A stretch of DNA of 58,300 nt from Chiloscyllium plagiosum (GCF_004010195.1 NC_057749.1:8125901-8184200), one strand, 5' to 3'. Positions 15,960-56,132 are shown, counted from the stretch's first letter. Notes: a model not told the origin generated them from the sequence alone. Made by a program: numbers and translations.

Positions 15960-16142
15960 TGAAATAAAACAGAAACACTGTGGGATTCTGAAGGTTTGAA
16001 ACAAAAACCAAAGCTGCGAGAGACACTCAGCAGGTCTGGCAGCATCTGTGCAGAGAGGAAGCAAAGTTAACATTTCGAGTCCAGTGACCCTTCTTCAGAA
16101 CACACCCAGACATTAGTCACTGGACTCGAAACATTAACTCTG
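15960..16142 (-). mobile_element. PLE-derived short element, family B, with short inverted arm
   Basis: Minus-strand tail + HHR, followed by inverted gtcactggactcgaaacattaactctg at ~16116-16142. Confidence 0.75.
16066..16101 (-). ncRNA. Minimal type I hammerhead ribozyme motif (family B)
   Basis: GUU-CUGAAGA-A-GGGUC-ACUG-GACUC-GAAA-UG-UU-AAC: stem I GUU/AAC, 5-bp stem II (one G-U), complete core. Confidence 0.7.
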
Positions 16143-16194
16143 ATGTCACTGGCATCAATGACCAGTTTGAATGGTGTCTCATAATTTGATGGTG

Positions 16195-16427
16195 TTCAAA
16201 GTTTGTGAGAAGATTTGTAGCTCGGGTGCTCGTTGTTGTGGTTCTGTTCGCCAAGAGTGGACAGCTGAAACTGACAACCGGAAGTGGCAGGGACAGGCCA
16301 CTATAAATGCCGGAGGAAACACCACAGAAGCGCTTCACAGGAGGCTCCCAAGCACTGAGGATGTCACCTAGACAGGGGACGAAACGTTTGCAACAAAAAC
16401 TTCCAGCTCGGCGAACAGAACCACAGC
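16195..16427 (-). mobile_element. Penelope-like insertion, family D, inverted arms, 12-bp TSD
   Basis: Same family as 40778-41214; perfect flanking duplication aatttgatggtg at 16183-16194 and 16428-16439. Confidence 0.85.
16352..16391 (+). ncRNA. Minimal type I hammerhead ribozyme motif (family D)
   Basis: GCA-CUGAGGA-U-GUCACCU-AGAC-AGGGGAC-GAAA-CG-UU-UGC. Confidence 0.75.
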
Positions 16428-16602
16428 AATTTGATGGTGCTAAAGTTGGTGCAGTTGCGAGCACAGAATATCCTGCCTTCTCCACCTCTCCTGAGATGTG
16501 ATGACTCTCATGTTGAAGCACCACTCTAATGAGAGAGCAGCCCTATGGTCTGGTAGGACTATGTTGACTTTCATTCGCCTTTGACATATTACACAGTAAG
16601 TA

Positions 16603-16840
16603 GAATCATACAATCCCTATAGTGTAGGAGCAGGCCATGCAATTCATCAAGTCCACACCATCCCCTCCGAGTAGCATCTCACCCAGACCCACCCCCTTAC
16701 CCTATTCCAATAGCCCTGCATTTTCCATGGCCATATTACCTCACCTGCACATCTTTGGATTATAAGAGGAAACCAGAGCACCTGGAGGAAATCCACGCAG
16801 ACCCGGGGCGAATGCGCAAACTCCACACCGACAGTCACAG
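16603..16840 (-). mobile_element. HE1-type SINE (5'-truncated) abutting a family A PLE tail (~16848-16972, +)
   Basis: HE1 body, then gatgaaggacttgtgctcaaaacgttgattctcctgctcc...ctcactttctcc. Confidence 0.75.
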
Positions 16841-17799
16841 ACATGGGTAGATGAAGGACTTGTGCTCAAAACGTTGATTCTCCTGCTCCTCGGATGCTGT
16901 CTGAACTGCCAAGCTTTTCCAGCACCACACTCTCGACTCTGATCTCCATTATCTGCAGTCCTCACTTTCTCCTCGAGGGAAATGGGTGAAAGGCAGGCAA
17001 GTGGGACTAGTTTAGTTTGGGAAACCTGGTTAGCATGGATGAGTCGGACCAAAGGATCTGTTTTTGTGCTGTATGATTCTATGGCTGTTCTCTTCATAGC
17101 AGAGAGATGACTGATGGTTGTTTAACCTCAGAGTCACCTCGCCTCAGATGAGGGGAGAGGTTGAGGAGGAGAGTCTTTCATGGTAACCTCAGCCAGGGCA
17201 GGAATTGAACCCATGCTGTTGGCATCACCCTGCGTGACAAACTACATTCTATTTTTTTCTGAGTTCAGAAAGGTGGGATAACTGACATTTTTAAGTCATC
17301 TCTATATTTCTTTGAGCCAGCTACCATCTCTCTACGATGTCAATCCTGCCCATGGCAATACAAATCAAGCTATATAACAGACAGGCTCACACTCAGTGGC
17401 AATGGGGGATTTTCCGATTTTGATGGACTCTCTTTGTATCAACACTCTTGTTTCGAGATTAATTAAGTCAAAAGTTGCTTAAGAGCTAGTATTGGCTGTT
17501 TTCAATGCTAATGTGTCTGAGTTGCCAGGCAACCAATGAATTGGATAATACTGATTGCTGAACACTGAGAGCACGAAATAGCCAGTCATTAACTCTGTAC
17601 CTTACAATGTTTGACAACTGACTGCAAAACCACAGACATCACTTGAAAGGAGTGTCATGACATTAAAACATAGCTCTGATTGAAATGTTGTGTTGTCTAA
17701 TCTTTGTTGCTCGGTTTTTCCAGTCTGGAATCTAATTCAGCTGTTCTTGGACAATGCCTATGTTTGGGTTGTTTTGGGGTAATCAATATTAAGGTAACA

Positions 17800-19014: not shown

Positions 19015-19325
19015 GGCTGGTATAGTGGTTCAATGGTTAGCACTTTTGCCTCACAGTGCCAGGAACCTGGATTTGATTCCAGCCTGGAGTGACTATCTTT
19101 TTAGAGTTTGTACATTCTCCCTGCGTCTGCATGGAGTTGACTCTAGTTTCCTCCCACACTCCAAAGATGTGCAGATTAGGTGGATGGGCCATGCTAAATT
19201 GCCCATAGTGTGCAGGCTAGTTTGGGTCAGCCATGGGAAGTGCAGGGATGAGATGGGTCTGGGTGGGGTGCTCGTCGGAGGGTTGGCATGGACTTGATGG
19301 GCCAAATGGCCTGCTTCCACACTGT
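19015..19325 (+). mobile_element. HE1-type SINE (a further partial copy at ~19420-19660)
   Basis: tggttcaatggttagcact head, HE1 body. Confidence 0.8.
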
Positions 19326-19779
19326 GGGGGATTTTGCAGTAGTTTGCCCACTTTTTAATTTCAGATCATCTTATTAACTAGAATGAAATTCTACTCATTT
19401 TTAAGCTTTGTTTTAATAATGGGGCGACTGTCTGTGAGGAGTTTGCACGTTTTCCTTGTGTCTGTTTGGGTTTCATCACACAATCCAAAGATGTGCAGGT
19501 TAGGTGGATTGGCCATACTAAATTGCCCATAATATCCAGGGATATGCAGACTAGGTGGATTGTCCATAGGGCATGCAGGATAGAGTGGCGGGGGGGTCTG
19601 GGTTGGATGCTTTCCAGAGGGTCAATGTGGACTCAATGGGCCGTATGACCTGTTTCCACACTATCAAGATCCAATGAAGTCAGGATGGTGAGTGACTTGG
19701 AGGGGAACTTGAAGGTGGTGGTGTTCCCATGTATCTGCTGCCCTTGAGCTTCAAGGTGGACGTGGTTGTGGAAGATGCT

Positions 19780-19986
19780 GAGTCAAGAGTGTGCTGCTGG
19801 AAAAGCACAGCAGGCCAGGCAGCATCCAAGGAGCAGGAGAATCGACATTTCGGGCATACACCTGATGAAGGGTTTATGACCGAAACGTCAATTCTCCTGC
19901 TCCTCGGATGCTGCCTGACCTGCTGTACTTTTCCAGCAGCACACTCTCGATTTTGATCTCCAGCATCTGCAGTCCTCACTTTCTCC
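19780..19986 (+). mobile_element. Palindromic PLE-derived element, family A, HHR core at 19862-19889
   Basis: Left arm is the reverse complement of the right arm minus a ~35-nt tail; CTGATGA-A-GGGTTTATGACC-GAAA-CG-TC at the centre; flanks gtggaagatgct (19768-19779) and gtggaaggtgct (19990-20001). Confidence 0.85.
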
Positions 19987-20721
19987 GACGTGGAAGGTGC
20001 TCTCTGAGGATCTTTCTAAACTTTGTAGTCAGATTGAGAACGTTACTCAACTGGACTACCGTCTCACACTTCTACATGACAGACTGAGTCAAATGTATTT
20101 GCAAGCATACATTTTGATTTTTAATATTCATGCATATTATTTTGGATGTGTGCTTGTATAGTGGATATTGCTTTCTATTGCAACACAATGATGACTTTGT
20201 AAGCTGGAGCTTTGATATTTATTTTATATATTTATTTATGAGTTCCAATGAAGTGCAGAGTGAATGCGATAGAAGCTGAAAACCTTTTGATGTCTGAAAA
20301 TGCTGACTGCTCTTTCAGCCCAACTCAAGAAGCATCAAAGGGACATTTATCCTTTCTTGCTGAAGAGGTCTGAGAGCTTTATTTGCGCTGGAAGATCCAG
20401 GAACAGAGTGGGACCCTTTGAGGATTTCATTATCAAAGCACCTGCTTCGCTTGAATCAAAATTAAATCATATGCTGTGTAGTTAGCTTTCATGTCACCCT
20501 TACAGGGTTGGTGGTCATAAGGGGGAGAGCTGAGAAAGATGAGCTTTAAACATGAGCTGTTATTTTTTATAAGTTAACAGGAAAATAGTTCTGCTTTGCC
20601 AAGATGTTTGCAACTGTGTTTTCAGCGGTAGATATTTAATATTTCGTATTAATTAGAATCAGTACCTGTGTCACTCTCCTCCACACAGCACCTCATTTCT
20701 TTATAGACTGCTGTCCTTGCA

Positions 20722-21005: not shown

Positions 21006-22829
21006 AAACTTTTCTGCCAAGATATTGTAAGTTGTCTATGATAACTGCATTACTTACAGGAAAGACAGCGCAAAACTGCTCCAGGAATATCTGATAAATG
21101 AAAAAATAATTACATTTTATTTCTAAAAGGTAGAACCTTACAAGATTTGCAATCTCTTACTTATTTAGGGTGCTCACAAAAATGTATCATTTTTGTCCCT
21201 TAACTAATACAATCTTGATAACTTTTTTAGAAGAAAATTAATCAGAATTAAGCCATTGAACCTGTAACAGAAACATCATCCTATTACAGAATTGACTGTA
21301 AATCATTATGTCCCTTCTAACCAGTATGAAAAGCAGGTTATGTGTGGAAGAAAACAACATATAAGCTAAATATTTGTGCTCAGTCTCCCAAATGCTATTA
21401 AAAAGGCACATGGCATTTCCTAATGGTAGTAATAGAGATTATTTATAGATGACAGCAAATGTGTTCTCAAAAAAACATGTTTGAAAGTTTTTAATCATTT
21501 TGTAATATTCTCTTATGAGTTCTTTCTGCACCATCTAAGAACTGTAGTCAAGGAAGGAGGCAGCCTGCTCTCTAACATGATCGCAGCTTGCCAAAGGAGG
21601 TCCTTCAGTCCATTAAGTGCATGGCTAGCTCACTGTCAGGCAATCCAGTCAAAGCGTTTGGATTTTTCTTTTAAGGAGTATGACAGTTAGCTAGAGAGCT
21701 GGGAAGGCAGCTGAAATAAGGAATCAAGGGCAAGTTGTATGGCTCTGGGCTGTTAGAAAAAGCTCAGGAAGAATGTTAAGGAATTAGTATGAAGTTAAGA
21801 GTTGGAGTCAGGATGCAGAAGTCATGTGCCTCAAATCGCACTGTGAGTTTTAGTTCTGTACAAGTTAGTCAACCAGAAGACAAAGTCAGGAACTCCCAGC
21901 AGGCTTAGACTTCAAAATAACACTATCACACATTAACTCAAAATGTCACAGTGCATGGTAAGCACGGATGTCGGTAAGGACTAATCTTTGTGTGTTCATA
22001 TCTTGTGTGTCTTCCAATCAAGGGTCACTGGACCTAAAACGTTAAGTCTGATTTCTGCCTACAGATGCTACCAGACCTGCTGAGTTTTTCCAGCAATTTC
22101 TTATTTTGTTCTCATATTCTAGTGTGTTCTAACTCTGCCTGTACTGTAGTATTTATGCTTAGTGATGTTGGCTCTGTGGCATCACCACAACATTGCTCCA
22201 GGGTCTTGAAAACCTGACATGACCATGGTGAGCCACCTTCTTCAACTGGTGTAGACCTCAAGGGAATTTCAGGAGTTTTATCTAGTGATAGGGAAGCAAT
22301 GGTAATCTAGTTCGAAGTAAAGATGGTGTGTAGCTTGGAAGGAAAATTGCAGGTCATGTTTTTTGCAGTCTTGTCCTTTTAAGTAGTTGGGGCTGCAGGT
22401 TCTAATGGTCCCTTGGCTGACAAGGAAGACTCATGGAATTGTTGGCTAGGGATCAGTAGCAAGATATTCAGCAATAAAGTAACTATCTGACAATGTAAAT
22501 GAAGTAATGGAGTCACAATGAGAATTTTTTTCAGGCAGATGACAGTTACCATCTGGGATACAGAGCCTGAGAGTGGAGTGGGAGCAGTTCAGAGTCGAGA
22601 GTGGGGTGCTGGAAAAGCACAGCATGTCAGGCAGCTTCTGAGGAGCAGGACGTTTCAGGCAAAAGTCCTTCATCAGGAATGAGGCTGAAGGGGGAGGAGG
22701 AGGAGGAGCATGAAGAGGGAGGTAGTTCAGTTGAGGACTCAAGAGGAAATTAGATTATTTTCTGCAAAGGAGCAATGTGAAGGGCTGTACTTTGGACACA
22801 AGTGTTCAGCTAAGAAATAGGCCATCAAG

Positions 22830-23342: not shown

Positions 23343-23625
23343 TGGCACAGTAGCTCAGTAGTTAGCACTGCAGCCTCACAGCACCAGGGACCCAGGTTCG
23401 ATCCCACCCTCAGGGGACTGCTTGTGTGCGGTTTGTACATTCTCCCCGTATCTGCGTGGGTCTCCTCCCAAAGTTCAAAGATATGCAGGTTAGGTGAGTT
23501 GGCCATGCTAAATTGCCCATAGTGTTCAGGTGGACTAGCCATGGGAAACGCAGGGATGGGGTGAGTCTGGGTGGGATGGTCTTCAGAGAGTCAATGGGCC
23601 AAATGGCCTGTTCCCCTTGCAGTAT
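23343..23625 (+). mobile_element. HE1-type SINE
   Basis: tggcacagtagctcagtagttagcact...ggttcgatccc head and HE1 body. Confidence 0.85.
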
Positions 23626-24742
23626 GAGTTCTGTGAACAGGTAGGTAAGTAGAGTAAGATAGAAAGGTTCTGACTCCAAGGCCATCGCAGAAGCATTGCC
23701 TTCCAGGAGGCTATAAATTCAAATAAAGAAGGGAGAGAAGAGCGACTGGACTCGAAATGTTGACTGTTTCTCTCTTTCCACAGATGCTGCCATACCTGCA
23801 GAGATTCTCTAGCAATTTCTGTCTCTGTTTCAGATTTCCCAAACTGCTGTTCTTCGTTTTATTAAAAAGAAGGGTCTGAAGCAGTAGAAACTGACCTGGA
23901 CTAGCCTTATAAATACAATGACTAAGAGAATACTCCACTTTGAAATTCAAATCGTTTCAACAGGAGTAAAGGTAGGTGATGGATACACTTGTGCAGTGAT
24001 ACAGATAGAGCCAGGCAGGTGGATAACGTGGGCCACTGGGGACAATGGCAAAATAAACTTAAGTGTGAAAACAGAATGAAAGTTAGTAAAAACAAAACAG
24101 AATAGACGGGATGGAAAGAAGTGAGAGTAGATCAGTCTGGAAAATTGAGATAAATACAAAGATTAATCCAGTGAGGAAGGAAACGCAATCAGATTGAGAC
24201 TAGTCCATTCAAAGTGAAATTAATACTGCAATATTATCATTTTCTTTCATGCTCAGAAGTGATGCTTTCAACTGCTCCATGAACTAGATTCATAAATGCC
24301 CCTTTGGAAATATCAAGGCAGCATGGCGATTATAAGTGGCAGGTGAAATGAAAACAGAAGGTGCTGGAGAAATTCAGCAGGTCTGAGGACAGAAACAGAG
24401 TTAATGTTTCAAGTCTAAAGACCCTTCTTGGCTTCTTGACAACAAAAGCAGTCATGTAACCAAAAACATAAAAGAATTAAAAGGAAAGAACTCCACTGAC
24501 AGTTTTCTTGTGAATAAACTGAAGTGGAGATAAGTAATCCCAAAACAACATGGGACCCTCCTTCCAGTGTTAAAGGAACATCACAGACTTGTGGTTCCTG
24601 GAAGAGTTCAGTCAAAGGTCAGAGTTTATAAATGCAGCTGACACTTTTTTTTAAAGTCTGGTTTAATTAGCATTGATTACTTTTTAAGAGATAACTTCTC
24701 CCCCGTATCCTGGCCCAAGTTTGGTTCCGCAACAAACACTGA

Positions 24743-24951
24743 TTAAGAAGTGCCGGTATTGAACTGGGGTGGACAAAGTCAGAAGTCACATGGCACCAGG
24801 TTATAGTTCAACAGGTTTATTTGAAATCACAAGCTTTTGGAGCACTGCTCCTTCATCAGGTGGAGTGAAGGAGGGGCAGTGCTCCAAAAGCTTGTGATTT
24901 CAAATAAACCTGTTGAACTATAATCTGGCATCATGTGACATTTGACCTTCT
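24743..24951 (-). mobile_element. Palindromic PLE-derived element, family C, mutated HHR at 24828-24862
   Basis: Inverted arms; minus CAC-CUGAUGA-A-GGAGC-AGU-GCUCC-AAAA-GC-UU-GUG (G12 to A); TSD aacaaacactga (24731-24742) / aacaaacattga (24952-24963). Confidence 0.85.
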
Positions 24952-24984
24952 AACAAACATTGACAGAATAGCAGATGATCTTTC

Positions 24985-26120: not shown

Positions 26121-26424
26121 CACAAGCAGTGAAAAACACTGTCATATGGCAAAGATTATGCATCATCATGAAACATTGGGGTTTGATCCCTGTTTTCTTT
26201 TTTGGTTTATCTCCATTGAGTCACTTTGGCTCATACAATGATAGTTACAGGGCCATCCTGCAATTATAAATTGTGTTTTGTTTAAATATGCATACAAGCC
26301 CGAGAGAGAGTTGAGGAGATATACCGTGACTTTCATCTTGAGGAAGAACTGGAGGAGCAGTATTGTTCTTCTTGGAACAGAAAGCGGGATTGGGGGGAAA
26401 CTTGACAAACCAAAAGACACATGA

Positions 26425-26675
26425 AAACAGACACAAAGACTGCTGGAGAAACTCAGCAGGCCAGGCAGAATCTGGGGATTGAGAAACAGTTAACATTTCA
26501 AGTTGGATGAAATTCTTCTTCCAAATCTGCTCTGAAGTTCCCACAGTTCTGAAGAAGATTCACACTGGTTTTGAAATGTTCACTCTGTTTCTCTCTCCAC
26601 AGATGCTGTCAGATCTGCAGAGTTTCTCCAGCATTCTCTTTGCTTATTTCCAGCATTTGCAGTGTTTTGCTTTTA
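26425..26675 (+). mobile_element. Older palindromic PLE-derived element, family B-like
   Basis: Inverted arms around the degenerate core cagttctgaagaagattcacactggttttgaaatgtt. Confidence 0.7.
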
Positions 26676-32605: not shown

Positions 32606-34259
32606 CAGACCAGCTAAAATATGTAGCTGCCTTTAAAAATTACAATCACAAGAAGCTGTAATTAATGAATTCTTGTAATCCAACAAGAAAAACATTGCTT
32701 CCTTTTGTTTTGTGCTGCTGCAGCCTTTATATTACCAGCCTACCTCTCGAATAAGGGAAACATTTATTTTTAAATAGAATTTGAAGGTGTAGATTAATCG
32801 GTTGCTGAAGAGCTCCTGCTTTCAGAGATAAACAGACTCCTAATGATTGAGATCCCAGAATCCCTTGTCCCTGGATCGATACCTAGCCAGATCTTCTCCT
32901 CTGCCTTAATTGTAAAGATTTCCTTTAAAAAAGACCCAAGAAATATGTCCAAAACACAGCAATACATTGTAATCTGGCACAGTGCATTTTGCAATGTGTT
33001 TTATTGCCTGTTTTCAGTTCTTTACTGCCTTTCAATTACAAGTAAATGGCAGTGCCCTGCACCAGGATCAATAGGGATCATTAAAAAGATGGCTGCGTCG
33101 AATGTAAGAAGAAACATGGTCTAACAACACAGACAAGCCTGCTGACATGAATCTTGTCTCCACTGTCAGTCATACCAATGAGGGAATGGGTTTAGAATGA
33201 AGCAGATTGCTTCTATAAATAATTTCCCTATCGCCACCAATCCGTCCATCCAAACCTGCCAAATCAATATAAGGAAATGGAACCACGGCCGTTTCATCCT
33301 CCAGCCCAACCTCTTTTATTCCTTTACTCATTCACAGAATGAGAGCATCGCTGGCTGGGCCAGCATTTGTTGTCCGTCCCTAACTGCCCAGAGGGCAGTT
33401 TAAGAATCACTTACATTGCTGTGGGTCTGGAGTCACATTTAGATCAGAATGGGTGAGGATGACATTTCCCTCCCAGGTGGAAACTGAAAGAACTGCAAAT
33501 ACTGTAAATCAGAAATGCTGGAAAAGCTCAGCAGGTCTGGCAGCATTTGTGGAGAGAAACCAGAATTAACATTTCAGGTCAAGTGAACCAGGTGGGTTTT
33601 TCCCAATAATCAATTCATGCTCAACATTAGACTCTTAATTCCAAATTTTTCATTGAATTCAAGTTCCACCATCCATTACAGCAGGATTCAAAGCCAGATC
33701 CCAGAGTCTTTGGATTAACAATCCAGCAGAAATGCCATTAGGTCATTGCCTCCATTGTTTCCCTTTCTGTCAGATTCTCCCCATCTGCTGCTAGAGCTAC
33801 ACTCCACGGCATCAGCCATAACTCATGGGCAGTCCTCAGTCGGTTGATTCTGGGCTCGGAGAGTTGAGCACAGGAGCTAGATTGATAATGCCAGTGTCAT
33901 ACTGAGGAAGAGCTGCACTCTCTATCTGTGCTATTGCTACAAAGCGTTAAATCAAGACTCCATACAGCCTCTGAGGTGGGAGCACAAGATTCTGTGATAT
34001 TATTTAGGGGAACTTATATTGGCAACATGTAACCTTCAATTTGCATCACTGAAAGCAAGGCATTTTGATTTGTCTCATGTTATTTTGTGGGAGTTTGCTG
34101 TGCCTCAATTCATTGCCATATTTCTACAAGACAGCAGTGGCTAACATTAATGAGAGGTTTCTTTTGGCTCTACAGTGTTTTGAGATGATCTGAGGTAGCA
34201 AATGTTGCTATGTAAGCCCATTTAGGATAGACAATGGTCTATTATAATCTATTATGAAA

Positions 34260-36697: not shown

Positions 36698-36864
36698 GCG
36701 CGGTTAGGCCACACAGAGGACATGCAGTGTCTGTTATTTGGGTGGTGAGGGTGAATGAGGAAGATGGCGCGTTCATTACCGAGAGTGGTAGAGCATGATG
36801 GGAGCTGGATGCAGTAACAGGGATAGAGTGAGTGTGAGATAGCGGAGAAAAGGTGATGGCACTT

Positions 36865-37393: not shown

Positions 37394-37535
37394 GCGTGGA
37401 CGTGCCGGTGTTGGACTGGGGTGGACAAAGTTAAAAATCACACAACTACCTACCTGACGAAGGAGCAGCACTCTGAAAGCTTGTACTTCCAAATAAAGCT
37501 GTTTGGCTATAACCTGGTGTGTGTTTTTTCATTTC
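37394..37535. mobile_element. PLE-derived element, family C, inverted arms
   Basis: Left: tail on minus (gtgccggtgttggactgggg...); right: HHR + partial tail on plus. Confidence 0.8.
37451..37485 (+). ncRNA. Minimal type I hammerhead ribozyme motif (family C variant)
   Basis: UAC-CUGACGA-A-GGAG-CAGCA-CUCU-GAAA-GC-UU-GUA; stem I UAC/GUA versus CAC/GUG in sister copies. Confidence 0.7.
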
Positions 37536-39615
37536 AAAGATTGGGATTAATTTTCTTGGAACAGAAGAGAAGGAGGGGGAGGGTTGTAGGTGGCAAGCGG
37601 GAAGGGAGAGATCATTGACCGGGGACGTAGAGTTAGAAAGATGCAGGAGGTTTAGAGGTGATGGACAGATTTTTTTTTCACTGAGATGTTGGTGTGAATC
37701 TGGAACTGACTTCCTACAAAGAGGTAGAGGCAGAAACCCTTATAATATTTAACAGGTATTTAAATATGCACTTGCAGTGCTAAGGCATACAAGACTAAGT
37801 GTTGGATATGGGATTAGAATAGTTTGGTGGTCATTTTTTTGACTGACACAGATGGGCCGAAGGGACTTTTTCTGTGTTTCAGACCACTAAACCTGACATG
37901 ATGCGCACTTCCCCCAAAAAAGTCACTAAAAGGAAAGGAAAAGGTGATAATCAGGAGTGGGGACTAAGAGGAGGAGGGCAATGGATTGAGGAAGGAATGC
38001 GGGGAGAGTGCCCTTGTGAACAACCATGTAGAATCCACACACCAAAGCCATGCCACAGGATGAGAAGGATGTATGTTTAGCACAGCACGCTAGAGCAAAA
38101 GGGGAAGGAACTTAGAGTTGAGGGACAAAAATGACAACTTGTGTGTGCAATATCTTTTGGTTCAATACTAAAAGTTGCTTCTTCCCTATGTCTTTTATTC
38201 CCTGTAAATGTTCTGTTGTCAGTTAAATTCAATCAGTCAGGAAATAAACCACAGAGGACTGCAACTATGAGAGAACAATGCCCTGTGCTACTTTTTATTA
38301 AGGACAAAATGTACCCTTTGAGTCTACTGAGCAAAAACATGTTTTATGAGCTGGCTAAAGTTCATAATCTAGCATGTTTATCAGAATGACCTGATGGAGG
38401 ACTTTATAATTATGAAGGGATTTATTAGGGCAGACGGAGAGGAGATCTTTCCAGATGACTTTGAGGGAACATAAAAGTAAGATTGTCTTTAATAAATCTA
38501 ATAGGAAATTCATGAGAAATATCTTTTAGCAAGAGAATGGTTAGAATGTGAAGCTAACTACTGCATGTATTTCAGGGAAATTCACCAGTTATTTGAAAGT
38601 GTGATGTAGAGTGTTTTATTTATCTAGATTTTGATATGATTTGTTTTAGAGTTTGGATTTGATCTAGTGACATATGTGTTAGGTCTGTGTGTCTGAAGGG
38701 GTTTAATGATTAAGTTGAAGGCATTTCTGTAGCCATGGAGATTTCACTTCAAAAAAATAAAAAATTATTAAAAATTGAAATTAAAATATTTGAAAAGTCT
38801 AAGAGAGAGAGAGCGCACTTGGAGAGTATATTTTATGACTGTACAAAATAAACAGAAACAAAACAGAAAGTGAGGAAAAAGGCAAAGCGTGGGTGATAGA
38901 ATTGTAAAAAAATTTGAGCTTCCTCGCGATAAGGAAATGAAAGAACTTCAGTTGGCTATAAAACAGTTTAGAGCAAAAACGGTAGGTACTAGTTTTAGAG
39001 AAAGAGAGAAAGGCACTCAAGATATAAAAAAGAAAGGTTGGACCTAAAAACTGATATCAAGAAGCTAACAGGTTTCCCTTATAATAAGATTTGACATAAC
39101 AAAGCCAAATGCTAGAAGTTAAATGAAAGATCAATTGCAGTTGTAGGAACATTTCAGGAATCTTCAGAAAAGGAGGCATCAGGGAAAGAAGCAGCTACTA
39201 AAATTAAATCACTTAGAATATCGACAAAGGGAATCCGATCATTCTTCTGAGCTTTCATTCTGAGTATTTTATCCCTAAAGAGAAGTTATTTCCTTTTGCT
39301 ATAAATCAAGGAAGATAAAAAAAAAGATATTGCAAGACATTGGAACACTTCAGGCACAGATGCTGGCTGATGATGCAATGTATCTTCTCAAAGGGTTTAA
39401 TGAAAGAGAAACTACAAATTGAAGGGACACATAGACGTGCAAAGTCATAAGGCCATAAGATATAGGAACAGAATTAGGCATTTGGTCCATCAAGTCTTCT
39501 CCACAATACAATTAGGACAGATATGTTTCTCAACCCCACTTTCTTGCCTTCTAACCATAACGTTTGACCCCATTACTAATCAATAACCTAATTATCTCTG
39601 TCTTAAATAGACTCA

Positions 39616-39794
39616 TGATTTGGAGATGCCGGTGTTGGACTGGGGTGTACAAAGTTAAACATCACACAACACCAGGTTATAGTCCAACAGGTTTAATTGG
39701 AAGCACACTAGCTTTCGGAGCGACGCTCCTTCATCAGGTGATAGTGGAGGACTCGATGTGATTTTTGGTGGTGTGGTGTTGTGTGATTTTTAAC
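39616..39794 (-). mobile_element. PLE-derived element, family C, 13-bp TSD
   Basis: ttaaatagactca (39603-39615) / ttaagtagactca (39795-39807); short inverted arm at ~39774-39796. Confidence 0.85.
39706..39740 (-). ncRNA. Minimal type I hammerhead ribozyme motif (family C), intact
   Basis: CAC-CUGAUGA-A-GGAGC-GUC-GCUCC-GAAA-GC-UA-GUG. Confidence 0.8.
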
Positions 39795-40815
39795 TTAAGT
39801 AGACTCAGTTCGGTTGGCCGTCCACAACCCTTTGCAGCAATGAGTTCCACAGATTAACCATCCCATGGCTGAAGACATTTCCTCCTTATCTCAGTTTTAA
39901 AGAGTCAAACCTTTACTCTGAGGTTGAGACCTTGGGTCCTTGTCTCTTCCACTAGTAGAAACATCTTTTCCACCTCCACTCTATCCAGGCTTGTCAGTAA
40001 GTCAGTGAAATGAAACCAGTCCCATTATATAGAGTTGGATTAAAGAGTGACTTAGTAAATGGAAAAAATATAGTGGGAATAATAGAACAAATGCCTATAG
40101 AAGGAATTACTTTACTGTGAGGAAATCATCTGGCAGGTTCAAAAACATTGGCTTTAACAAGGATGGTTTAACAACCAATGGAGGCAGAATAAACAGAAAT
40201 GTTACAAGAGGAGTTTCAAGGACCAGCCTGAGGAATGGATAGTCGTCCATAAAGTGACAGGTCCATCTGTCTATCATAATGAAACTTACAAGTGGATCAT
40301 GAAATTCCAATGACAGGTCACCACAAAGACTTTGCAATAATCAAAATCTTTGTGATTCATTTGGTTTCGGCATTATCACAAAAGGTGAGTTACAGTTACT
40401 ATGATACAGTTCAGTGATGTCTTTGCCCATCATAAACTTAATCTCTTTTCTCACTTGAGTGAATATTTCTAGAATGAGTCTATAATACACTTTCCACATT
40501 AGCATCTGGAGTAGCCAAAACAGTTTTGTCCTGAACTACCCCACAAACTGATTTTATAATAGCCTTTTCCCAAATGCATTGCTTCAGCAAGTCAAGCAGG
40601 AACTTCCATAAGCATATAAAATACTAGTGCCTTTCCTTAGTTTTAGATCGGGGCCCTAAGCAAACTAGGAAGATCCTCCTGAACAGTTCCTCACAAGCTA
40701 GTTTTGGAGCTAAAGGTGTTGCCACTCCCCACATATGTGGCATGATTGGCAAATTTTGACTATATCCATACCTAATACTGTTGTGGTTCTGTTCGCCGAG
40801 CTGGGAATTTGTGTT

Positions 40816-40855
40816 GCAGACATTTCGTCACCTGTCTAGGTGACATCCTCAGTGC
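40816..40855 (-). ncRNA. Minimal hammerhead motif (family D, left arm)
   Basis: GCA-CUGAGGA-U-GUCACCU-AGAC-AGGUGAC-GAAA-UG-UC-UGC; perfect 7-bp stem II. Confidence 0.75.
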
Positions 40856-41101
40856 TTGGGAGCCTCCTGTGAAACGCTTCTGTGATTTCCTCTGGCATTT
40901 GTAGTAGTTTGAATCTGTCGCTTCCGGTTGTCAGTTCCAGCTGTCCGTTCCAGTGGCCGGTATATTGGATCCAGATCGATGTGCTTATTGATTGAATCTG
41001 TGGATGAGTGCCAGCTGGAACTGACAACCGGAAGCGGCAGATTCAAACCACTACAAATGCCGGAGGAAAGATCACAGAAGCGCTTCACAGGAGGCTCCCA
41101 A

Positions 41102-41141
41102 GCACTGAGGATGTCACCTAGACAGGGGACGAAACGTCTGC
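41102..41141 (+). ncRNA. Minimal hammerhead motif (family D, right arm), GUC site
   Basis: GCA-CUGAGGA-U-GUCACCU-AGAC-AGGGGAC-GAAA-CG-UC/UGC; predicted cleavage after 41138. Confidence 0.8.
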
Positions 41142-41779
41142 AACACAAATTCCAGCTCGGCGAACAGAACCACAACAACGAGCACCCGAGCTACAAATCT
41201 TCTCACAAACTTTGTACATAATAATATCCAATAAAAATGTTTTACCATTTTAGCCAGTATTTCCCTAATCTCCAAGGCATCTCAAATAGTTTCTGCTGGA
41301 GGTATCTAACATTTACATGATGGTGACAGTGATGGGCATTTGAAGATTTCCCTTAGGTGTACCGCATATGACAAGAGACCAGAGTTAGCGGAGCACAGAT
41401 ATGGTGGAAGATTGCAGGAATGAGCAAAATATTACAGATAGGGAAGGGGTGAGACCATAGAGGGACTTGAAAATACAAATGAGGACTTACGAATGATGAT
41501 GGTGCCAATGTTGATAGATTAGCAAGCACAAGGGTGACAGGGTAAAAAAGAAAGCAGAAATTGCTGGAAAAGCTCAAGAGGTCTGGCAGCATCTGTGAAG
41601 AGAAATTAGAGTTAGCATTTCAGATCCAGTGACCAGAATTGAGACTTGCTGTAAGTTATCTCAAGGTTAAAGGTAGTAGAATGTGGGAGACCAGGCATGA
41701 ATGTACTGGAAAAATGGAATCTAGACATGACAAAGATGTGAATGAGACCATCCGTGTTGAGTATATTTTTTCCTTCGTC

Positions 41780-43205: not shown

Positions 43206-43419
43206 AGCTGAAAAATGTGTTGCTGGAAAAGCGCAGCAGGTCAGGCAGCATCCAAGGAGCAGGAGAATTGACGTTTCGGGCATTCCTGAAGAAGGATTCC
43301 TGAAGAAGGGCTTATGTCCGAAACGTCGATTCTCCTGTTCCTTGGATGCTGCCTGACCACTTTTCCAGCAACACATTTTTCAGCTCTGATCTCCAGCATC
43401 TGCAGTCCTCACTTTCTCA
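43206..43419 (+). mobile_element. Palindromic PLE-derived element, family A, HHR at 43296-43331
   Basis: CUGAAGA-A-GGGC-UUAU-GUCC-GAAA-CG-UC; TSD aagacactctag (43196-43207) / aagacattctag (43420-43431); 14-bp junction duplication attcctgaagaagg. Confidence 0.85.
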
Positions 43420-43477
43420 AAGACATTCTAGGGCAAGTACATCAGGTTGAACCCCGTTACCTATAAAATTCTAACAA

Positions 43478-43713
43478 GACGAAAACAGATGTTGCTTGAA
43501 CAGCTCAGCGGGTCTGGCAGCATCTGTGAAGAGAAACTAAAGTTGATGTTTCAGGGCCAGTGACCCTTCCTCAGAACTGTTTTGAGGAAGGGTCACCAGA
43601 CCAGAAACAGTAACTCTGACTTCTCTTCACAGATACTGCCAGACTTGCTGAGCTTTTCCAGCAATTTCCATTTTTGTTTGTGATTTACAGCATCCGCAGT
43701 TCTTTCGGTTTTT
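43478..43713 (+). mobile_element. Palindromic PLE-derived element, family B
   Basis: Arms meet at tgacccttcctcagaac-t-gttttgaggaagggtca; both HHR cores are decayed; inserted in CR1. Confidence 0.85.
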
Positions 43714-48076: not shown

Positions 48077-48420
48077 GGGGCAGCACAGTGGCTCAGTGGT
48101 TAACACTGCTGCCACACATCACCAGGGACCTGGGTTCAATTCCAATCTCTGGCAACTGTCTGTACGGAGTTGCACATTCTCCTTGTGTCTGCGTGGGTTT
48201 CCTCCGGGTGCTCCGGTTTCCTCCCACCATCCAAAGATCTACAGGTCAGGTGAATTGGCCACGCTAAATTGCCCATAGTGTTCAGGGATGCGTAGGTTAG
48301 GTGCATTAGTCAGGGTCAAACACAGGGAGTGGGTCTGGGTGGATTACTCTTTGGAGGGTTGGTGTGGACTTGCTGGGCTGAAGAGCCTGTTTCCACACTG
48401 TAGAGATTCTAATCTAATCT
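48077..48420 (+). mobile_element. HE1 SINE with probable TSD
   Basis: Full head and tail; aatcttatgg (48069-48078) / aatcttacgg (48416-48425). Confidence 0.9.
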
Positions 48421-50014
48421 TACGGCGTGGCCATCACTGACAAAAACAAAAATAGTAACCCACTGAATTAAAAAAAACAACTGCAGATGGTGGAAATCAG
48501 AAACAATTGCTGGACAAAACAGAAATTCTGGAGAAGGATCATCGGACCCGAAGCGTTAACTTTAATTTCTCTCCATAGCTGTTGAGTTTTTCCAGCAATT
48601 CCTGTTTTCGTTGCTTGTAACCCAAGAAGGTGAGCTGCTTTTGTAAACCATTGCAGTCTGTGTGGTTTGGGGAGCTCCGGGATTATTCCAATGGGAATGA
48701 AGGAATGGCACTGTAACTCCAAATTAAAATAGTGTAAAACTTGATGAGGAGCATGGAGTTGGTGATATTCCATGGATTCAAAGCCCTTGTCCTTATAGAT
48801 GGTACAGTACATGGGTCTGGAAAGTATTTCTGAAAAATTAGCTATGGCAATTGACAGCAGCTCAATCTGTGAATGGTACACGCTTCAGCCACAAAGTACC
48901 CATGGTGGATGTTTATGGCTGTCGATCAATTATTGTCACAGATTCTCTAAAAAAGTCCTCCTTCTCCATTTCTCTAGCCACAGAGTGTGCTAATGGGACA
49001 AAGCACTTGTCCTGTCACTGTTGTGTGTGGTAGATAGAGACTTCAACAGCATGGAGTTAGCAGGATGTATTGGAGGGATGCCCTGCATTCATCCAACCCC
49101 ATAGCTGCATCTTCAGTCCATACTATCTATTTGTTATTTTTCTTAAGAACGAGTTCTAGATCCATTGCAGAAAATTAAAACTAAACTTCAGGGACTCAAG
49201 CATAACAACAGCTAATGGCTTTGAATGTTGTGTAGTCACTTCATAACAATCAATCAACACACAACATATCTTTTATTTTAAAAAATGAACATTTTAATCC
49301 ATTTGTACACTCATAACCAATCACTGTCATGCCAACCCTAGCTAAGTTTTGAGATGAGTTTGGTTCACCATGTTTCACAGATGGTCTTTACCTCCTGAAG
49401 GTGTTCAGCAACCACCAACCCATGTCATCCCATTACAACTTATTCCCTTATATTCTGCTCTTTGTGTTAACTGCTGAATTTGCAACACTCTCTCATGGGG
49501 TCTCTCATCTTTTATTGCTTCAGATCACTCCATACAGAGATTTTGTCTTCTTTAGCCAGATAATTTCAGTCCTCACCCCATTCTCTTTGTTTTTTTAGTG
49601 CTTGATTTACTTCTGCTTGGCTTCACACAAAGTGACACAATGTAACTAAAGTAGAAGCAATGAGAAGACAGAATGCAGAGTAGTCATAGAGTCATTGAGA
49701 TCTATAGAGAAAGGCCCTTTAACCCATCATGCCTTTGCCAGTCAATAACAACCACCTAACTAGTGCTATTGTCCTAGCAATCTGATGGCCTTGTCCTAAG
49801 TTTTTAATATATTAATAGGAAAAGGCAGGATAGATAAAGATAAGCTATTTCCATCGGTTAGGGAATCAGGAACTAGGAGTACAGTCTGAAAATTAGGACC
49901 AGACGGTTCAAGAGAGATAACCAAAACAGAAATTGCTGGAAAACTCAGCAGGTCTGGCAGCATCTGAGGAACTAAAGCAGAGTCAACATTTCAGATCAAT
50001 GTTTTTGCTTCTGA

Positions 50015-50350
50015 TTAGGTGACATGGTGGCTCAAATGTAATATGGTTGCCTCACAATGCCTGAGATCCAGGTTCGATTCCACCCTCAGGTGACCATCTG
50101 TGTGGAGTTTGCACATTCTCCCCATGTCTATATGGGTTTCCTCCCACAGTCCAAAGATGTGCATGTTAGGTGGATTGGCCACATTCAATTGCTCACAGTG
50201 TCCAGGGATGTGTAGGCTAGGTGGGCTAGCCATGGAAAATGCAAGGCTACTGGCATAGGATGGAGGTGGGTCTGGTTGGGATGGTCTTCGGAGAGTTGGT
50301 GCAGACTCAATGGGCCAAATGGCCCGCTTCCACACTGTAGGGATTCTATG
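50015..50350 (+). mobile_element. HE1-type SINE, followed by a CR1 3' end (~50385-50610)
   Basis: ggttcgattcc B box and HE1 body; YTQRVVNVWNALPQRAV downstream. Confidence 0.85.
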
Positions 50351-51510
50351 ATTTGCAGCATCTGCATTTCTTTGATTTTTTTTCCATTCACAAGCGATGT
50401 TAGGAAGCACGTGTATACACAAAGAGTGGTAAATGTTTGGAACGCTCTTCCACAAAGAGCAGTGAGCACAGGTTGATTTGTTTGCTTTAAATCTGAGATA
50501 GATTTTGGTTTGCTGAGTAAAGATAATAAGGGATATGGGCAAAAAGCAGGTATTTGGAGTAAGGCCACAGGTCAGTCATGATCTCACCGAATGGCCTACT
50601 CCTGTTCCTATGTGCCAAAACTCCAAAGATTTGAGTTCAAACCCTGCTATGGCAACTGGGAGAATTTAAATTCAAGTGTACAAAATAATCTTGGAATAAA
50701 ATGCTGGTCTTGTTAATGGAGCCATTTCATTGTTGTTTAAATTGGTTCTCTGTTGTCTTCAGGTGGAAAACCGTTGGCTCTCTTTATGTGGTCTGGTCTT
50801 CACAAGATTCAGTAATGTGGCTGTCTCTTAAATGCCCGTGCCCACAAGCCAATCAGGTCTATCAAATTGCTGCTGAAAAAAACACGATGGGTCTACTTAC
50901 TCAGGAGGGCCTGCAGTGGGGCAGGTGGATGGCCCACCACCACCTTTGCAAGGGTAATGTGGGATGAGCCATTGAATTTTAAAAAAGCAACCATTAATTA
51001 TTCAAATTTGCTTTTCCATTGTTGTGAGCATTTATTTTAATTCCATGTTGTGCACTTCATTTCTAAATAGGTCACAAAATGTCAACTCTGACAGGCTTAG
51101 CTCATTTTTTATACATCAGTAATGGCGTCAATAGTCATCTGAATTGACCAAAAGGGTTTGCTGTCTTCAGATGAAAACAGACAAATTGAATTCCACTTCA
51201 CTTAACTAAAATGCCCAGAATTATTGCGCTTACTTCTATCGGATTACGCTCATTTGCTTTTTACAGTAAAAAAAGTCCATGAATTAAAGTCTTCATACAG
51301 AAACCTGTCATACAATGATGTGCTCCTACCAGCCCCATTTTCCTATTGATAGCCTCCTTAAAACAGACCAGTTTTAAAATTTCATTAGAGTAACAAGTGA
51401 GATCAATTGAAAACATGGTGCTTTTTATGATAATAGCATGTTCCAGAACGTGTCACAGACAATTAGATATTTTTGAAGCCTTTGACATCCCGTTGTAATG
51501 TATGATATTA

Positions 51511-51853: not shown

Positions 51854-51863
51854 ACAAATGATA

Positions 51864-52491: not shown

Positions 52492-54119
52492 GATATGTTG
52501 CGGTCAATTTCCTTATAGAAAGCTCCCATAAGCAACAATGATCAGATAGTCTGCTTTAAAGTGTTGTTTGAGGGAATCTCAATGTTCTATGGTACTGCAA
52601 GTGAACAGATGAGGAGCAAGGGGCTTCAACTCAGAAGTATTATGGTGCCAAATCTGGTATAAGAGTGTAACTGCAGCATGACAGGTTTACATAGACTATT
52701 TCCATTTAAACATATGGATGTAGCAATTGAAGTTAGAAAAGGAACTGACAGAAAGGTGAGAGGCAACAATTACATTTTGTAGACTGAACGATTTCAAATG
52801 GATTGGAGATCATTTCCATTTTTGACATTCGATATATAAAATCCAAATAAACTTAACTTATTCAGTGTTTGCAACAAGATTAAGTGATAATTATTGTCTA
52901 AAATTAGCTGTTAAGTGCCTAGTACAGATTTGAGTATCTGAGCTACCCATTGTGTTTTTGTTTTGCATCAGAACTGCTGTGAAGTGAATCAGATTGCAAC
53001 TAAAAATAAATTACCAAGGTGGCCATTTGAGGTACTTGGTAATGGTCTTGCTTCTGGGTTGAAAGGCAGTTCAGAGTACAGTGGGAATCCTGAGTGAGAG
53101 GATATGCTTATTCTTAGTGCTCAATCAGGTGAATCCTGTGGTACTAATGAGAAATGATCCCAAAGGCACTCCAAACAGCCCCCAAAACTCAATCAAAATG
53201 CTCAAAAATGTTCATTATGTGTGTGTGGGATCTTGCTATGCACAATTTGGCTGATGTGTTCATCTCAACTGCAACAGCTGATGCACTTTAAGATCCAGGC
53301 TGTTCTTTCCTCACAACACATTAGTCAACAGCATCTTCAAACACCGAGTCTCAAACCAAGTTCTTGTTCATTACTGTCCTCATTATTTGTTCAGAGCTAG
53401 AATCTAATCAAAGCAAATATCACACTGTGCTCTTTAAGTGATTATAAAAATATAATTTCACCAAATTAATAATGCACATTCTATTCAGACCTCTCCAGTG
53501 CACCTCATGGAGAAGTGATAATAGTGTAGAAAATAGCATTTACAGTTAAAGGGACAGTTATTTGAGTGTATTAATTCTGCCTGATGGTTTTTAAGACCAG
53601 GTTTAATTAAAATGGAGAGTGAATCATGTAAACATTTATCCTGCAGTGCACATTTGCAACAGTCGTCAGTGGAAGAGTTTATAAAGTGTTGCACAAAAAG
53701 AACCAGCCCAAAACTACCCTATTAGATGTAAACAAAACCATAGCAAAGTTACGAGAAGAAAAGATACCATTCATACTACTGTGTCTGTGCTGGATTGGAA
53801 AAAAGCGAGCTGCCTGTTCTAATCTCACTTTCCAGTCAATAATCTTAATGCCCTTATGAGAAAGTAAACAATAACTTGTGGATGAGAAAACAGAGCAGAA
53901 TGCTTGCCTTTGCTTCAATATGATCAATGGTTTCTCCCTGGATATTCAGTGGTTAAAAGTGATTCAATTTGAAATAGCTGGCCTGTATTGTCCTGTGTCT
54001 ATTCAATTATTGGATAATGTTACTCAGTCAAGTGCCAACCATGGTGTTGCACTCATTGGTGATCAGGCTACATGTTCACAGCAAAACAAAAGAAACCCTA
54101 TTCACTCCTACTTCAGTGT

Positions 54120-54556
54120 GACTTATAAGGAGAGGCTGGATAGGCTGGGACTTTTTTCACTGGGCGTTGGAGGTTGAGAGATTACTTGAGAGAGGTTTAT
54201 AAAATCATGAGGAGTATAGATAAAGTGAGTGGCAGGTGACTTTTCCCTAGGATGGGGGATTTCAAGACTCAGGGGCACATTATTAAAGCAAGAGGGAAAA
54301 GCTTTTAAAAAGGCATGCATGGCAACTATTTTTACACAGAAAGTGGCTCATGTGTGGAATAAACTGCCAGAGAAAGTGATGGATGTGGGTGCAGTTACAA
54401 TGTTTAAAAGACATTTTGATAAGTTTATGAATAGGAAAGGCTGGGATATGGGACAAGATCAAACAGGTGGAACTAGTTTAGTTTGGAATTACAGTCAGCA
54501 TGGACTGGTTGGACTGAAGGGTCTGTTTCCATAGTGGTACGACTCTATGACTCTAT
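54120..54556 (+). mobile_element. CR1 3' end
   Basis: YKERLDRLGLFSL; FTQKVAHVWNKLPEKV; tatgactc tail. Confidence 0.9.
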
Positions 54557-54972
54557 GCCATCGCCAGTACACCACCTCCCTGTCAGCTTAACGATCTAAC
54601 ATCACTATGAACATAACTCCTTACACACATGCTCAGTGGCTATTCTTCAAGTCAAGGTTTGGTTGCACTTTATACACAATTACCTCTTACAGAACATTGA
54701 GGCCTTGAAGGAGGATGTTCAGCCCATCGTGCCAGCTCTTTTAAAGTTCAATCTAATTGGACACACTTGTTTTTTAAGAAAGCTCTAATAGTTATAAGCC
54801 ACTGTCTTTTAATTCTCCACCATTGCATTGCCACGTTGGTAACTGTGACACATTTGGTCAGCTTTTCTGTTGTGATTTATTGATCTTGTATGAATGGGAT
54901 GCCTTATGGACAAATGAGCCACTGTGACAAGTCGTTAGGCACCAGTGTGTAAAAAGGACTAATTGTTAGCGG

Positions 54973-55107
54973 CAAAAACTGAAAGAATTGTGGATGCTGT
55001 AAATCAGAAACAAAAACAGAAATTACTGGAAAAACTCAGCAGGTCTGGCATCATCTGTGGAGAGAAAACAGAGTTAATGTTTCGGGTCGAGTGACCCTTC
55101 CTCAGAA
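54973..55107 (-). mobile_element. PLE-derived element, family B, HHR at ~55074-55107
   Basis: Minus UU-CUGAGGA-A-GGGUC-ACUC-GACCC-GAAA-CA-UU-AA with a perfect stem II; flanks aattgttagcgg / aaatgttagagg. Confidence 0.8.
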
Positions 55108-56006
55108 ATGTTAGAGGTGTTGTACTAATGGAAACATATTTGCCAGACATGATTTTTTCCCACAGAATGCAGCCATCTACATCTTCATGTATGCCGAATG
55201 CAAAGATGCATTTTTAAAATGATGTATGTCATTGTAAGGTACTTGCGTACAATGGTGAAGAATAATTGATCAGGCTCTTTTTCAAGAAGTTGATGGTCCT
55301 TTAAATTGGGCCGACTGCATCTTTCGCACCCCTGACCTTCATCGCTCCACTATCGACTTTTCTTAAATTCTGAAACCTTTCCCTCTATCTTTAACTCTCC
55401 CCACCCCTTTCCAGATGCTGCTTTTTTTGGCCAGTCTTCTAGTCACTTGCTCTAAAAGTTTCTCAAGTTACTCGCTGTCAAATATTGTTTGATAATGCTC
55501 CTGTGAAATATCTTGGGACTCTAAATGGCACTATATAAATTCAAGTTATTGCCAGTCAAACAGAACTTCAAGCCTGGTGTGGAACTCAAATCCAACTGAA
55601 AAATCTCTTCAGTGAAGCTTAAATGTACAAACGTAGACCAGACATCAAACGTACTTTTGAAAAGGAGGTCATGGGGTTAATCTAAATTTCCAGTGTAATT
55701 TTCCAGCAGTGGGAATGTTATAAAAATATGTATTAATGCCAGTCTTCATACAGGTAACAAATTTCTTCATTATGAATATACTTAACCAACTTATTCACAC
55801 GTGCTCCAACACACCTTTGGAGCACGTTGGACTCAAACCCAGGTCTCCTAGATCAAACCCTACCACAACAGCCCCTTAGTCCACCTTAACCTGCTGACTA
55901 TGAGCCAATTTGGGGATCAAAGCAAATCGTAGTTCAGACCGTGTGCGGACCCATGTATAAAATAGGAGGTCTAATGATGTGTAGATTAGACGGATTATCC
56001 ATGTTG

Positions 56007-56132
56007 GGAAGGGTCACCCGAGCCGAAACGTTAACTCTGATTTCTCTCCATAGGTATTGCCAGACCTGCTGAGTTTCTCCAGCAATTTCTGGTTTTGTTT
56101 CTGATTTCCATTATCTGCAGCTCTTTCTATTT
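56007..56132 (+). mobile_element. PLE-derived element, family B, truncated within the HHR
   Basis: ggaagggtcacccgagccgaaacgttaactctg + tail; other single-arm copies at ~90-182, ~850-915, ~9560-9692, ~22020-22115, ~23735-23840, ~24348-24430, ~33481-33587, ~41545-41635, ~48470-48612, ~49920-49997. Confidence 0.75.

Follow-up and report, generated by a model that had tools for sequence, protein, structure and literature searches.

Short repeats with minimal hammerhead ribozyme motifs and the insertion architecture of Penelope-like elements in Chiloscyllium plagiosum

Introduction

Minimal hammerhead ribozymes are massively present in metazoan genomes, including those of fishes, the coelacanth, amphibians and reptiles, and have been described from the ends of Penelope-like elements (PLEs). 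Here we analyse short repeats that carry such motifs in a 58,300-nucleotide stretch of the Chiloscyllium plagiosum genome (GCF_004010195.1 NC_057749.1:8125901-8184200). We call this whole stretch the window and count positions from its first nucleotide. The minimal hammerheads of metazoan PLEs are reported to have four traits in common, namely one additional base behind A9, the pair G10.1-C11.1, a palindrome that replaces helix III and a helix I of small size, all of which emerged from searches although they lay outside the descriptor (Cervera & de la Pena 2014, PMC4209133). Their copies are mostly solitary or form opposite-strand pairs 100-700 bp apart, several sequence-diverse consensus families are found per genome, and coelacanth and Xenopus hold 4,000-9,000 motifs per genome (PMC4209133). 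A helix III formed between two such ribozymes through their palindromes is a published proposal.

The way in which PLEs insert is also described. Their insertions show strong 5′ truncation and an adjacent inverted, 5′-truncated copy; a tail of 30-40 bp is often found at one end only, and the position of the hammerhead is close to the 3′ end (Craig et al. 2021, PMC8557442). The purified Poseidon protein of Anolis carolinensis cleaves and extends both target strands (Frangieh et al. 2024, PMC11167929). An AC-rich stem-loop contains the two neighbouring internal sites at which it begins reverse transcription, and the tail is the sequence between them; the hammerhead cut site lies ~85-92 nt upstream of these start sites, ribozyme mutations left insertion in vitro unaffected, and RNA reads beginning directly past the cleavage site are absent in Anolis (PMC11167929).

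Another group, the animal retrozymes without long terminal repeats (non-LTR retrozymes), also has hammerheads of type I whose helix III is palindromic (Cervera & de la Pena 2020, PMC7229834; Li, Clavereau & Pollet 2026 preprint). The preprint treats animal retrozymes as non-autonomous derivatives of the pseudo-long terminal repeats (pLTRs) of PLEs, finds dispersed monomers to be common and includes retrozymes in one chondrichthyan genome.

Minimal hammerheads in PLE ends, their abundance as solitary or opposite-strand copies and the PLE insertion architecture are thus already in print. We found no printed description of the families reported below, and nothing specific in the cartilaginous-fish literature; Repbase and Dfam lay outside this search.

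Results

Hammerhead motifs in the window exceed chance

A loose pattern, CTGANGA-N5-30-GAAA on either strand, matched 19 times in the window, against 6.73 matches expected; none of 100 dinucleotide shuffles reached 19. Thirteen of these rows fall inside repeat families and represent 12 distinct sites, because the rows at 43286 and 43300 have one GAAA in common: a 14-nt internal duplication at 43286-43313, in a family A copy, repeats the CUGAAGA box and so makes the pattern match twice. The six rows outside the families (8+, 4199-, 14925-, 39152-, 39367+ and 50725-) are what chance would supply.

A stricter descriptor combined both boxes, 0-1 unpaired base, a helix II of at least 4 bp, the string A-N-N-U-H (H, non-G) and a helix I of at least 2 bp. 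Over the 116.6 kb of strand searched it returned seven sites: 16070-, 37454+, 39710-, 40820-, 43300+, 43546- and 55077-. It found nothing in 300 dinucleotide-preserving shuffles and nothing in the window read in reverse without complementing, a control that preserves composition, repeats and palindromes. A preliminary description of positions 15960..56132 had named ten hammerhead coordinates in four families, and the core is present at all ten, although some copies have decayed (GAAA has become AAAA in the copy at 24828, and those at 41105 and 16355 carry an A.G mismatch). The exact ribozyme strings of families D, C and B had no match in metagenome, viral or prokaryote genome contigs.

Four families share the anatomy of PLE-type minimal hammerheads

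Self-comparison and unit-based BLAST of the window yielded 35 arms in 24 insertions: six arms in 4 insertions for family A, 19 in 15 for family B, six in 3 for family C and four in 2 for family D. The preliminary description had spoken of about 20 copies or fragments, in agreement with this count, although two of the insertions (74-156 and 845-916) lie outside the range it covered. It had also treated all four families as dissimilar. This is true of C, D and A/B, which are mutually unrelated: C and D show no BLAST similarity to A/B or to each other (E<=1e-3). Families A and B, in contrast, are ~63% identical over the aligned length of the whole element and share a 3′ module. By sequence comparison there are, then, three unrelated lineages, one of which has split into A and B. 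Units of A, B and C are ~105-150 bp long. By summed length the insertions make up ~6% of the bases, that is, 24 insertions with 12 intact cores in 58.3 kb.

The catalytic boxes CUGANGA and GAAA are arranged as in type I hammerheads, position 16.1 is U and the cleavage-site base is not G; both boxes are kept in 12 of the 35 arms. The best copy of family A reads helix I GGAUUC, box CUGAAGA, bulge A and helix II GGGC-UUAU-GUCC, followed on the 3′ side by GAA-ACGU-C and helix I GAUUCU. Its counterpart in B has helix I AGUU, box CUGAGGA, bulge A and helix II GGGUC-ACUN-GACCC, then GAA-ACGU-U and AACU; in C, helix I CAC, box CUGAUGA, bulge A and helix II GGAGC-GUC-GCUCC are followed by GAA-AGCU-A and GUG. 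Family D combines helix I GCA, box CUGAGGA, bulge U and helix II GUCACCU-AGAC-AGGUGAC with GAA-ACGU-C and UGC. The unpaired base after A9, before position 10.1, is thus A in three families and U in the fourth. Helix I is 3-5 bp and helix II 4-7 bp long in the units of this window. The best copy of every family closes helix II with G10.1-C11.1, which has decayed to G.U in many B copies through loss of CpG. As the preliminary description had noticed, helix III (15.2-16.2) is replaced by a palindromic tetramer with no loop: ACGU in A, B and D, and AGCU in C. Several copies have decayed to ACAU or AUGU, and family B keeps ACGU in 3 copies; CpG decay affects both this tetramer and the C11.1-G12 step.

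Eleven core positions are identical across all four families. Between families, the changes in helix II are fully compensated (GGGC/GUCC, GGGUC/GACCC, GGAGC/GCUCC, GUCACCU/AGGUGAC); within families they are mostly disruptive, consistent with decay. The copies at 39710-39737 (-), 40820-40852 (-) and 43300-43327 (+) have decayed least. Thermodynamic folds form helices I and II in some monomers. All the features that Cervera & de la Pena (2014) found beyond their descriptor are present, and the sequence comparison supports the preliminary assignment of these motifs as PLE-type minimal type I hammerheads. The motifs resemble those of PLEs in layout, boxes, A9 bulge, G10.1-C11.1 pair, palindrome and short helix I, and the window resembles PLE-bearing genomes in its diverse families and its solitary or opposite-strand paired copies. 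It differs in that no open reading frame (ORF) for a reverse transcriptase (RT) or endonuclease flanks the copies in the window, and in a high local density, which as a value from one window cannot be extrapolated.

Insertions are single arms or head-to-head pairs with a one-sided tail

Every arm extends outward from the ribozyme and stops at a constant 3′ end. From 5′ to 3′, a unit consists of the hammerhead, then 39-58 nt ending in a hairpin, then an optional tail of 24-41 nt. Measured in four copies, the distance from the predicted cut site is 39-58 nt to the short end and 80-93 nt to the tailed end. The tail of A and B contains the 3′ strand of a hairpin closed by GAUGCUG/CAGCAUC. In all 12 arms that keep both boxes, the 3′ direction of the ribozyme strand points to the outer end of the arm.

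Single arms account for 13 of the 24 insertions and head-to-head pairs for the other 11. Left arms of pairs carry the ribozyme on the minus strand, right arms on the plus strand. The centre of the pair varies among copies of one family: the three C pairs have three centres, one joining two near-full arms, one a 50-nt arm and a full arm, and one a full arm and a 23-nt arm. A one-sided overhang of 24-41 nt, the tail, is present in nine of nine evaluable pairs (A, 39 and 34 nt; B, ~24 and 32 nt; C, 32, 38 and 36 nt; D, 36 and 41 nt), two B pairs being too decayed to judge.

Some insertions are flanked by direct repeats resembling target-site duplications (TSDs). Of the 22 insertions tested, 5 lie between repeats that match at 11 or more bases, whereas only 2 of 300 random position pairs do; at a threshold of 9 matches the figures are 9 of 22 and 16 of 300. 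The five, 12-14 bp long, belong to the first and third C pairs, both A pairs and the D pair at 16.2 kb. The repeats flank whole structures, and each pair is therefore a single insertion event. No telomere-complementary repeats occur here, and the TSDs indicate endonuclease-mediated internal insertion.

The insertions by family

Family A comprises two inverted pairs and two single arms. The pair at 43208..43419 has a full plus arm with the tail at 43386-43419 and the hammerhead at 43300-43327 (+), with a cut predicted after 43327; its TSD, AAGACA[C/T]TCTAG, lies at 43196-43207 and 43420-43431. The pair at 19780..19989 (+) is self-inverted over 19783-19950, with the core at 19862-19889 (+) showing one helix II mismatch, the 39-nt overhang at 19951-19989 and the TSD GTGGAAG[A/G]TGCT at 19768-19779 and 19990-20001. 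One single arm, 16850..16972 (+), has a tail and a degenerate 5′ box, TAGATGA. The other, 22571..22690 (-), has intact core boxes at 22653-22676 (-), a weakened helix II and a 7-nt deletion past the cut site.

Family C is made up of pairs. The first, 24743..24951, is self-inverted over 24775-24949 and is the one with two near-full arms; its minus-arm hammerhead is the decayed copy at 24828, and the 32-nt tail is on the left arm only (24743-24774). Its TSD, AACAAACA[C/T]TGA, lies at 24731-24742 and 24952-24963. In the second, 37395..37536, the left (-) arm is cut to ~50 nt yet carries the tail, and the full right (+) arm has its hammerhead at 37454-37482. No significant TSD flanks this pair. 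The third, 39616..39793, joins a full minus arm (hammerhead 39710-39737, 36-nt tail 39616-39651) to a plus arm of ~23 nt (39774-39793), between copies of the TSD CTTAA[A/G]TAGACTCA at 39602-39615 and 39794-39807.

Family D also consists of pairs. At 16197..16427, the left (-) arm, 16197-16255, holds the last 59 nt of the unit, including the 36-nt tail, and the right (+) arm, 16259-16427, holds the hammerhead at 16355-16388 with its A.G mismatch in helix II; the TSD AATTTGATGGTG[T/C]T lies at 16183-16196 and 16428-16441. The inverted pair at 40779..41218 is self-inverted over 40779-41177, where 352 of 388 aligned bases are identical. It carries hammerheads at 40820-40852 (-) and 41105-41138 (+), the latter being the copy with the A.G helix II mismatch, and a 41-nt tail on the right arm only (41178-41218). 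Its untailed end lies in the AC-rich loop of a GCUCGG/CCGAGC hairpin.

Family B is the most numerous. Its inverted pair at 43474..43713 has a hammerhead at 43546-43574 (-), a degenerate plus-arm copy from ~43582 (TTGAGGA) and a tail on the right arm only (43682-43713). The inverted pair at 26415..26674 is self-inverted over 26423-26650, with core boxes at 26549-26576 (+), a decayed helix II and a ~24-nt tail remnant on the right arm only. In the insertion at 15966..16150, a tailed minus arm (15966-16100, hammerhead 16070-16098) is accompanied by a 35-nt plus arm at 16116-16150. A degenerate pair lies at 48475..48615, and in its plus arm (48526-48615) the core boxes have become CUGGAGA and GAAG. 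Five single B arms have a full tail or a remnant of one: 54974..55112 (-), with a hammerhead at 55077-55105 (-) whose ACGU has decayed to ACAU; 9561..9694 (+), with its 5′ end at the CUGA box and the candidate TSD ATGT[A/G]ATTCT; 23737..23860 (+), with its 5′ end within the core and the candidate TSD A[T/A]AAAGAAGGG; 56007..56133 (+), with helix II and GAAACGUU intact and the 5′ box missing; and 33481..33589 (-), which starts in helix II and keeps a tail remnant. Those with no tail are 22020..22110 (+), with a decayed core and the candidate TSD TCT[T/A]GTGTGT; 24345..24427 (-), 5′-truncated inside the core; 41546..41634 (-), which starts in helix II; and 49919..49997 (-), 5′-truncated. Two arms, 74..156 (-) and 845..916 (-), are more distant, and homology in the second begins at about the predicted cut site.

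One cluster, 15966-16441, brings families together: the B pair at 15966-16150 is followed, after 47 bp, by the D pair at 16197-16427 with its own 14-bp TSD, and the A arm at 16850-16972 lies downstream.

Other repeats in the window

Two further repeat families are abundant. A SINE-like family (short interspersed nuclear element) of ~300 bp has at least 12 copies with 63-75% identity and is unrelated to the hammerhead units; its copies lie, among others, at 19400-19700, 50030-50370, 5261-5559, 10192-10503, 19046-19329, 23373-23636 and 48101-48411. A family of ~480 bp with no hammerhead motif has at least 12 copies with 65-77% identity (among others 3320-3810, 11227-11686, 12312-12735, 13720-14144, 54116-54555 and 56380-56744). 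One of its copies adjoins, at 56744, a fragment of a long interspersed nuclear element (LINE) at 56744-57615 (+), which gives matches to a GDSL-lipase/OSK-type esterase (E 1e-7) and then a weak match to an apurinic/apyrimidinic (AP) endonuclease (Exo_endo_phos); no RT is seen up to the end of the window.

Arrays of a 52-bp tandem repeat at 30192-30562 and 30723-31080 (7.1 and 6.9 copies) are inverted around a ~160-bp core to give a hairpin of ~900 bp, whose centre has a sub-threshold Rfam match to mir-2545 (59.3 bits; gathering score 94). The 52-mer belongs to a ~300-bp SINE-like repeat with a dozen further copies in the window. Microsatellite-like arrays lie at 36444-36699 and 46421-46599: GAGT-rich with a period of 12-20, and (TAGAAT)n with ~29 copies.

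Discussion

A proposed origin of the units as PLE-inserted 3′ modules

We propose that the units are dispersed, mostly dead 3′-terminal modules of retroelements inserted by PLE machinery, a reading to which we give a probability of roughly 0.8. We place the carriers among PLE-mobilised elements because their architecture matches published PLE insertion in three unrelated lineages. The agreement covers 5′ truncation, the head-to-head inverted copy, the tail at one end, the hammerhead upstream of the putative RT start sites and the use of both strands; in family D it probably extends to an RT start in an AC-rich stem-loop, as in Poseidon. The window departs from published PLE insertions in lacking the partial tandem (pLTR) arrangement and any RT or GIY-YIG ORF, and in the fixed 5′ ends of A, B and C at the ribozyme. 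It departs from Anolis Poseidon in the spacing between the cut site and the short end, which at 39-58 nt is below the ~85-92 nt of that element.

Under this reading, master copies elsewhere in the genome would be transcribed, and a PLE protein would bind the 3′ module and cut both target strands, by analogy with Poseidon. Reverse transcription would begin at either of two internal sites in the 3′ module, giving ends with or without the tail. Complementary DNA (cDNA) synthesis from one strand would leave a single arm, whereas synthesis from both would produce two arms head to head, one of them tailed; it would stop at or near the ribozyme, and a variable TSD would be left. The hammerhead would be active, if at all, only in master-copy transcripts, where copies of the same orientation could meet in tandem or in trans and two ribozymes could pair through ACGU/ACGU or AGCU/AGCU to form a shared helix III. 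Cleavage of minimal hammerheads as dimers is reportedly described by Lunse, Weinberg and Breaker (2017), as cited in PMC6765202. At the loci of this window ribozyme action is unlikely, because there is no same-strand tandem and, in the pairs, the ribozyme faces its own antisense; a transcript of any of these loci would hold at most one ribozyme. There is no sign of selection at these loci, and the dispersed copies decay like neutral DNA.

Several observations weigh against the proposal. A Pfam search of the window's 136 stop-to-stop ORFs (75 amino acids or longer) found no RT or GIY-YIG match, its only hits being the esterase and AP-endonuclease matches of the LINE fragment, and because no autonomous partner with these domains lies in the window, the link to PLEs is purely one of architecture. 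The partial tandem that pLTRs would form is also absent from the window. If a 3-kb element were truncated at random, the 5′ ends of its copies should scatter, yet those of families A, B and C fall in a stretch of ~25 nt about the CUGA box (for B, between query positions 14 and 38, the box being at 21); family D has ~100 nt or more upstream of the ribozyme. Both A pairs have an identical inner junction, in loop II of the untailed arm, which two independent two-strand events would not predict. The short plus B arm at 16116-16150 has no 3′ end, which a target-primed arm should keep.

The ribozyme itself raises further points of this kind. In family B, identity to the consensus is lower in the core (144/187, 77%) than in the 69-column 3′ module (961/1147, 84%), and reaches 119/170 (70%) in helix II. 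Rfam 15 returned no hammerhead family at either gathering score or E<=10, in the whole window or in two small targeted stretches that contain six of the sites; its output for the window consisted only of weak, sub-threshold microRNA- or small nucleolar RNA-like hairpins. We attribute this silence to the missing helix III, and no curated model independently backs the hammerhead call. The minimum-energy structure predicted by nearest-neighbour cofolding is not the hammerhead dimer, a result to which we give no weight either way.

Alternative origins of the units

The clustering of 5′ ends prompts a narrower version of the proposal, in which A, B and C are ultra-short (~105-150 bp), "ribozyme-first" non-autonomous PLE parasites, each made of a hammerhead and an RT-priming module, and not random truncations. 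With their 5′ end fixed to a few bases around the first ribozyme nucleotide, the hammerhead, its stable helix II or a dimer would mark the 5′ end of the copied template. Three single B arms with candidate TSDs, which are weaker at 9-10 matches, start from ~3 nt before to 8 nt after C3, and the loop II junction common to the two A pairs points the same way. We regard this version as possible but doubtful, the choice between truly non-autonomous families and extreme truncations of long PLEs being one that we infer.

A second explanation, which we think unlikely, is that the units are monomer offspring of non-LTR retrozymes, whose tandem arrays give transcripts that cleave themselves, form circles and return to the genome as DNA copies. 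The likeness is real: these are short, non-coding units with type I hammerheads and a palindromic helix III, their proposed dependence on PLEs has a parallel in the derivation argued in the 2026 preprint, dispersed monomers are common there, and the short length and ribozyme-fixed 5′ ends of A, B and C fit a small defined unit. The defining tandem arrangement is missing, however: Tandem Repeats Finder (TRF) gave 11 rows for the 58.3 kb, none of them an array of any of the four units, and the label "retrozyme-like" of the preliminary description is not supported. A self-cleaved unit should also start right past the cut site, which only 1 of 17 aligned B arms (845-916) does; the remaining arms also contain the entire core that precedes the cut. 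Finally, the one-sided tail and the inverted pairs fit linear priming of the PLE type, not a circle.

More improbable still is that the units are SINE-like and were mobilised by a LINE of CR1 or L2 type, with the hammerhead carried along or captured. A LINE fragment with esterase and AP-endonuclease matches does lie in the window (56744-57615), 5′ truncation and TSDs of 12-14 bp are found with LINE-driven insertion too, and SINE-like elements bearing hammerheads have been described from schistosomes. The 3′ ends tell against it. They carry neither poly(A) nor a microsatellite, and the two alternative ends, ~24-41 nt apart, match the PLE tail. In the twin priming of LINEs, it is a more upstream segment of the same RNA that becomes inverted; in the units described here the two arms have one 3′ module at their ends, which would mean priming at the 3′ site of the element on both strands, as for the PLE protein.

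That the units are miniature inverted-repeat transposable elements (MITEs) or foldback DNA transposons, with a hammerhead-like string in their terminal inverted repeats, is very improbable. Several copies do fold into long hairpins, and some give weak Rfam matches to microRNA precursors (for example 19830-19903 and 24823-24901). Yet more than half of the insertions are single arms, the centres of the pairs vary within a family, and the one-sided tail makes the arms unequal in every evaluable pair. Cut-and-paste superfamilies leave short TSDs of fixed length, whereas those found here are 12-14 bp long and variable. The preliminary description had warned that the look of a MITE is deceptive, and the combination of head-to-head 5′-truncated arms, a tail on one arm and 12-14 bp TSDs, which is the PLE insertion architecture, bears this out.

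Chance resemblance multiplied by repeat amplification, for which one could cite the mere 3-4 independent lineages behind the 12 sites and the lack of an Rfam match, has next to no probability, given a strict descriptor that is silent in 300 shuffles and three unrelated units of 100-300 bp with the motif at the same place and orientation relative to the 3′ end and a compensated helix II.

Implications

These repeats matter first for annotation: being hairpin-shaped, they are easily labelled as MITEs or microRNA-like hairpins, yet they carry the signature of PLE retrotransposition. With two RT starts, a one-sided tail and both strands primed, the window would be a compact natural illustration of a recently proposed PLE mechanism, provided by element families that are otherwise mutually unrelated. 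If the density seen in this one window held genome-wide, minimal hammerheads would be one to two orders of magnitude more numerous than the 4,000-9,000 of coelacanth and Xenopus. The clustering of 5′ ends at the ribozyme, in turn, bears on what the hammerhead does for PLEs.

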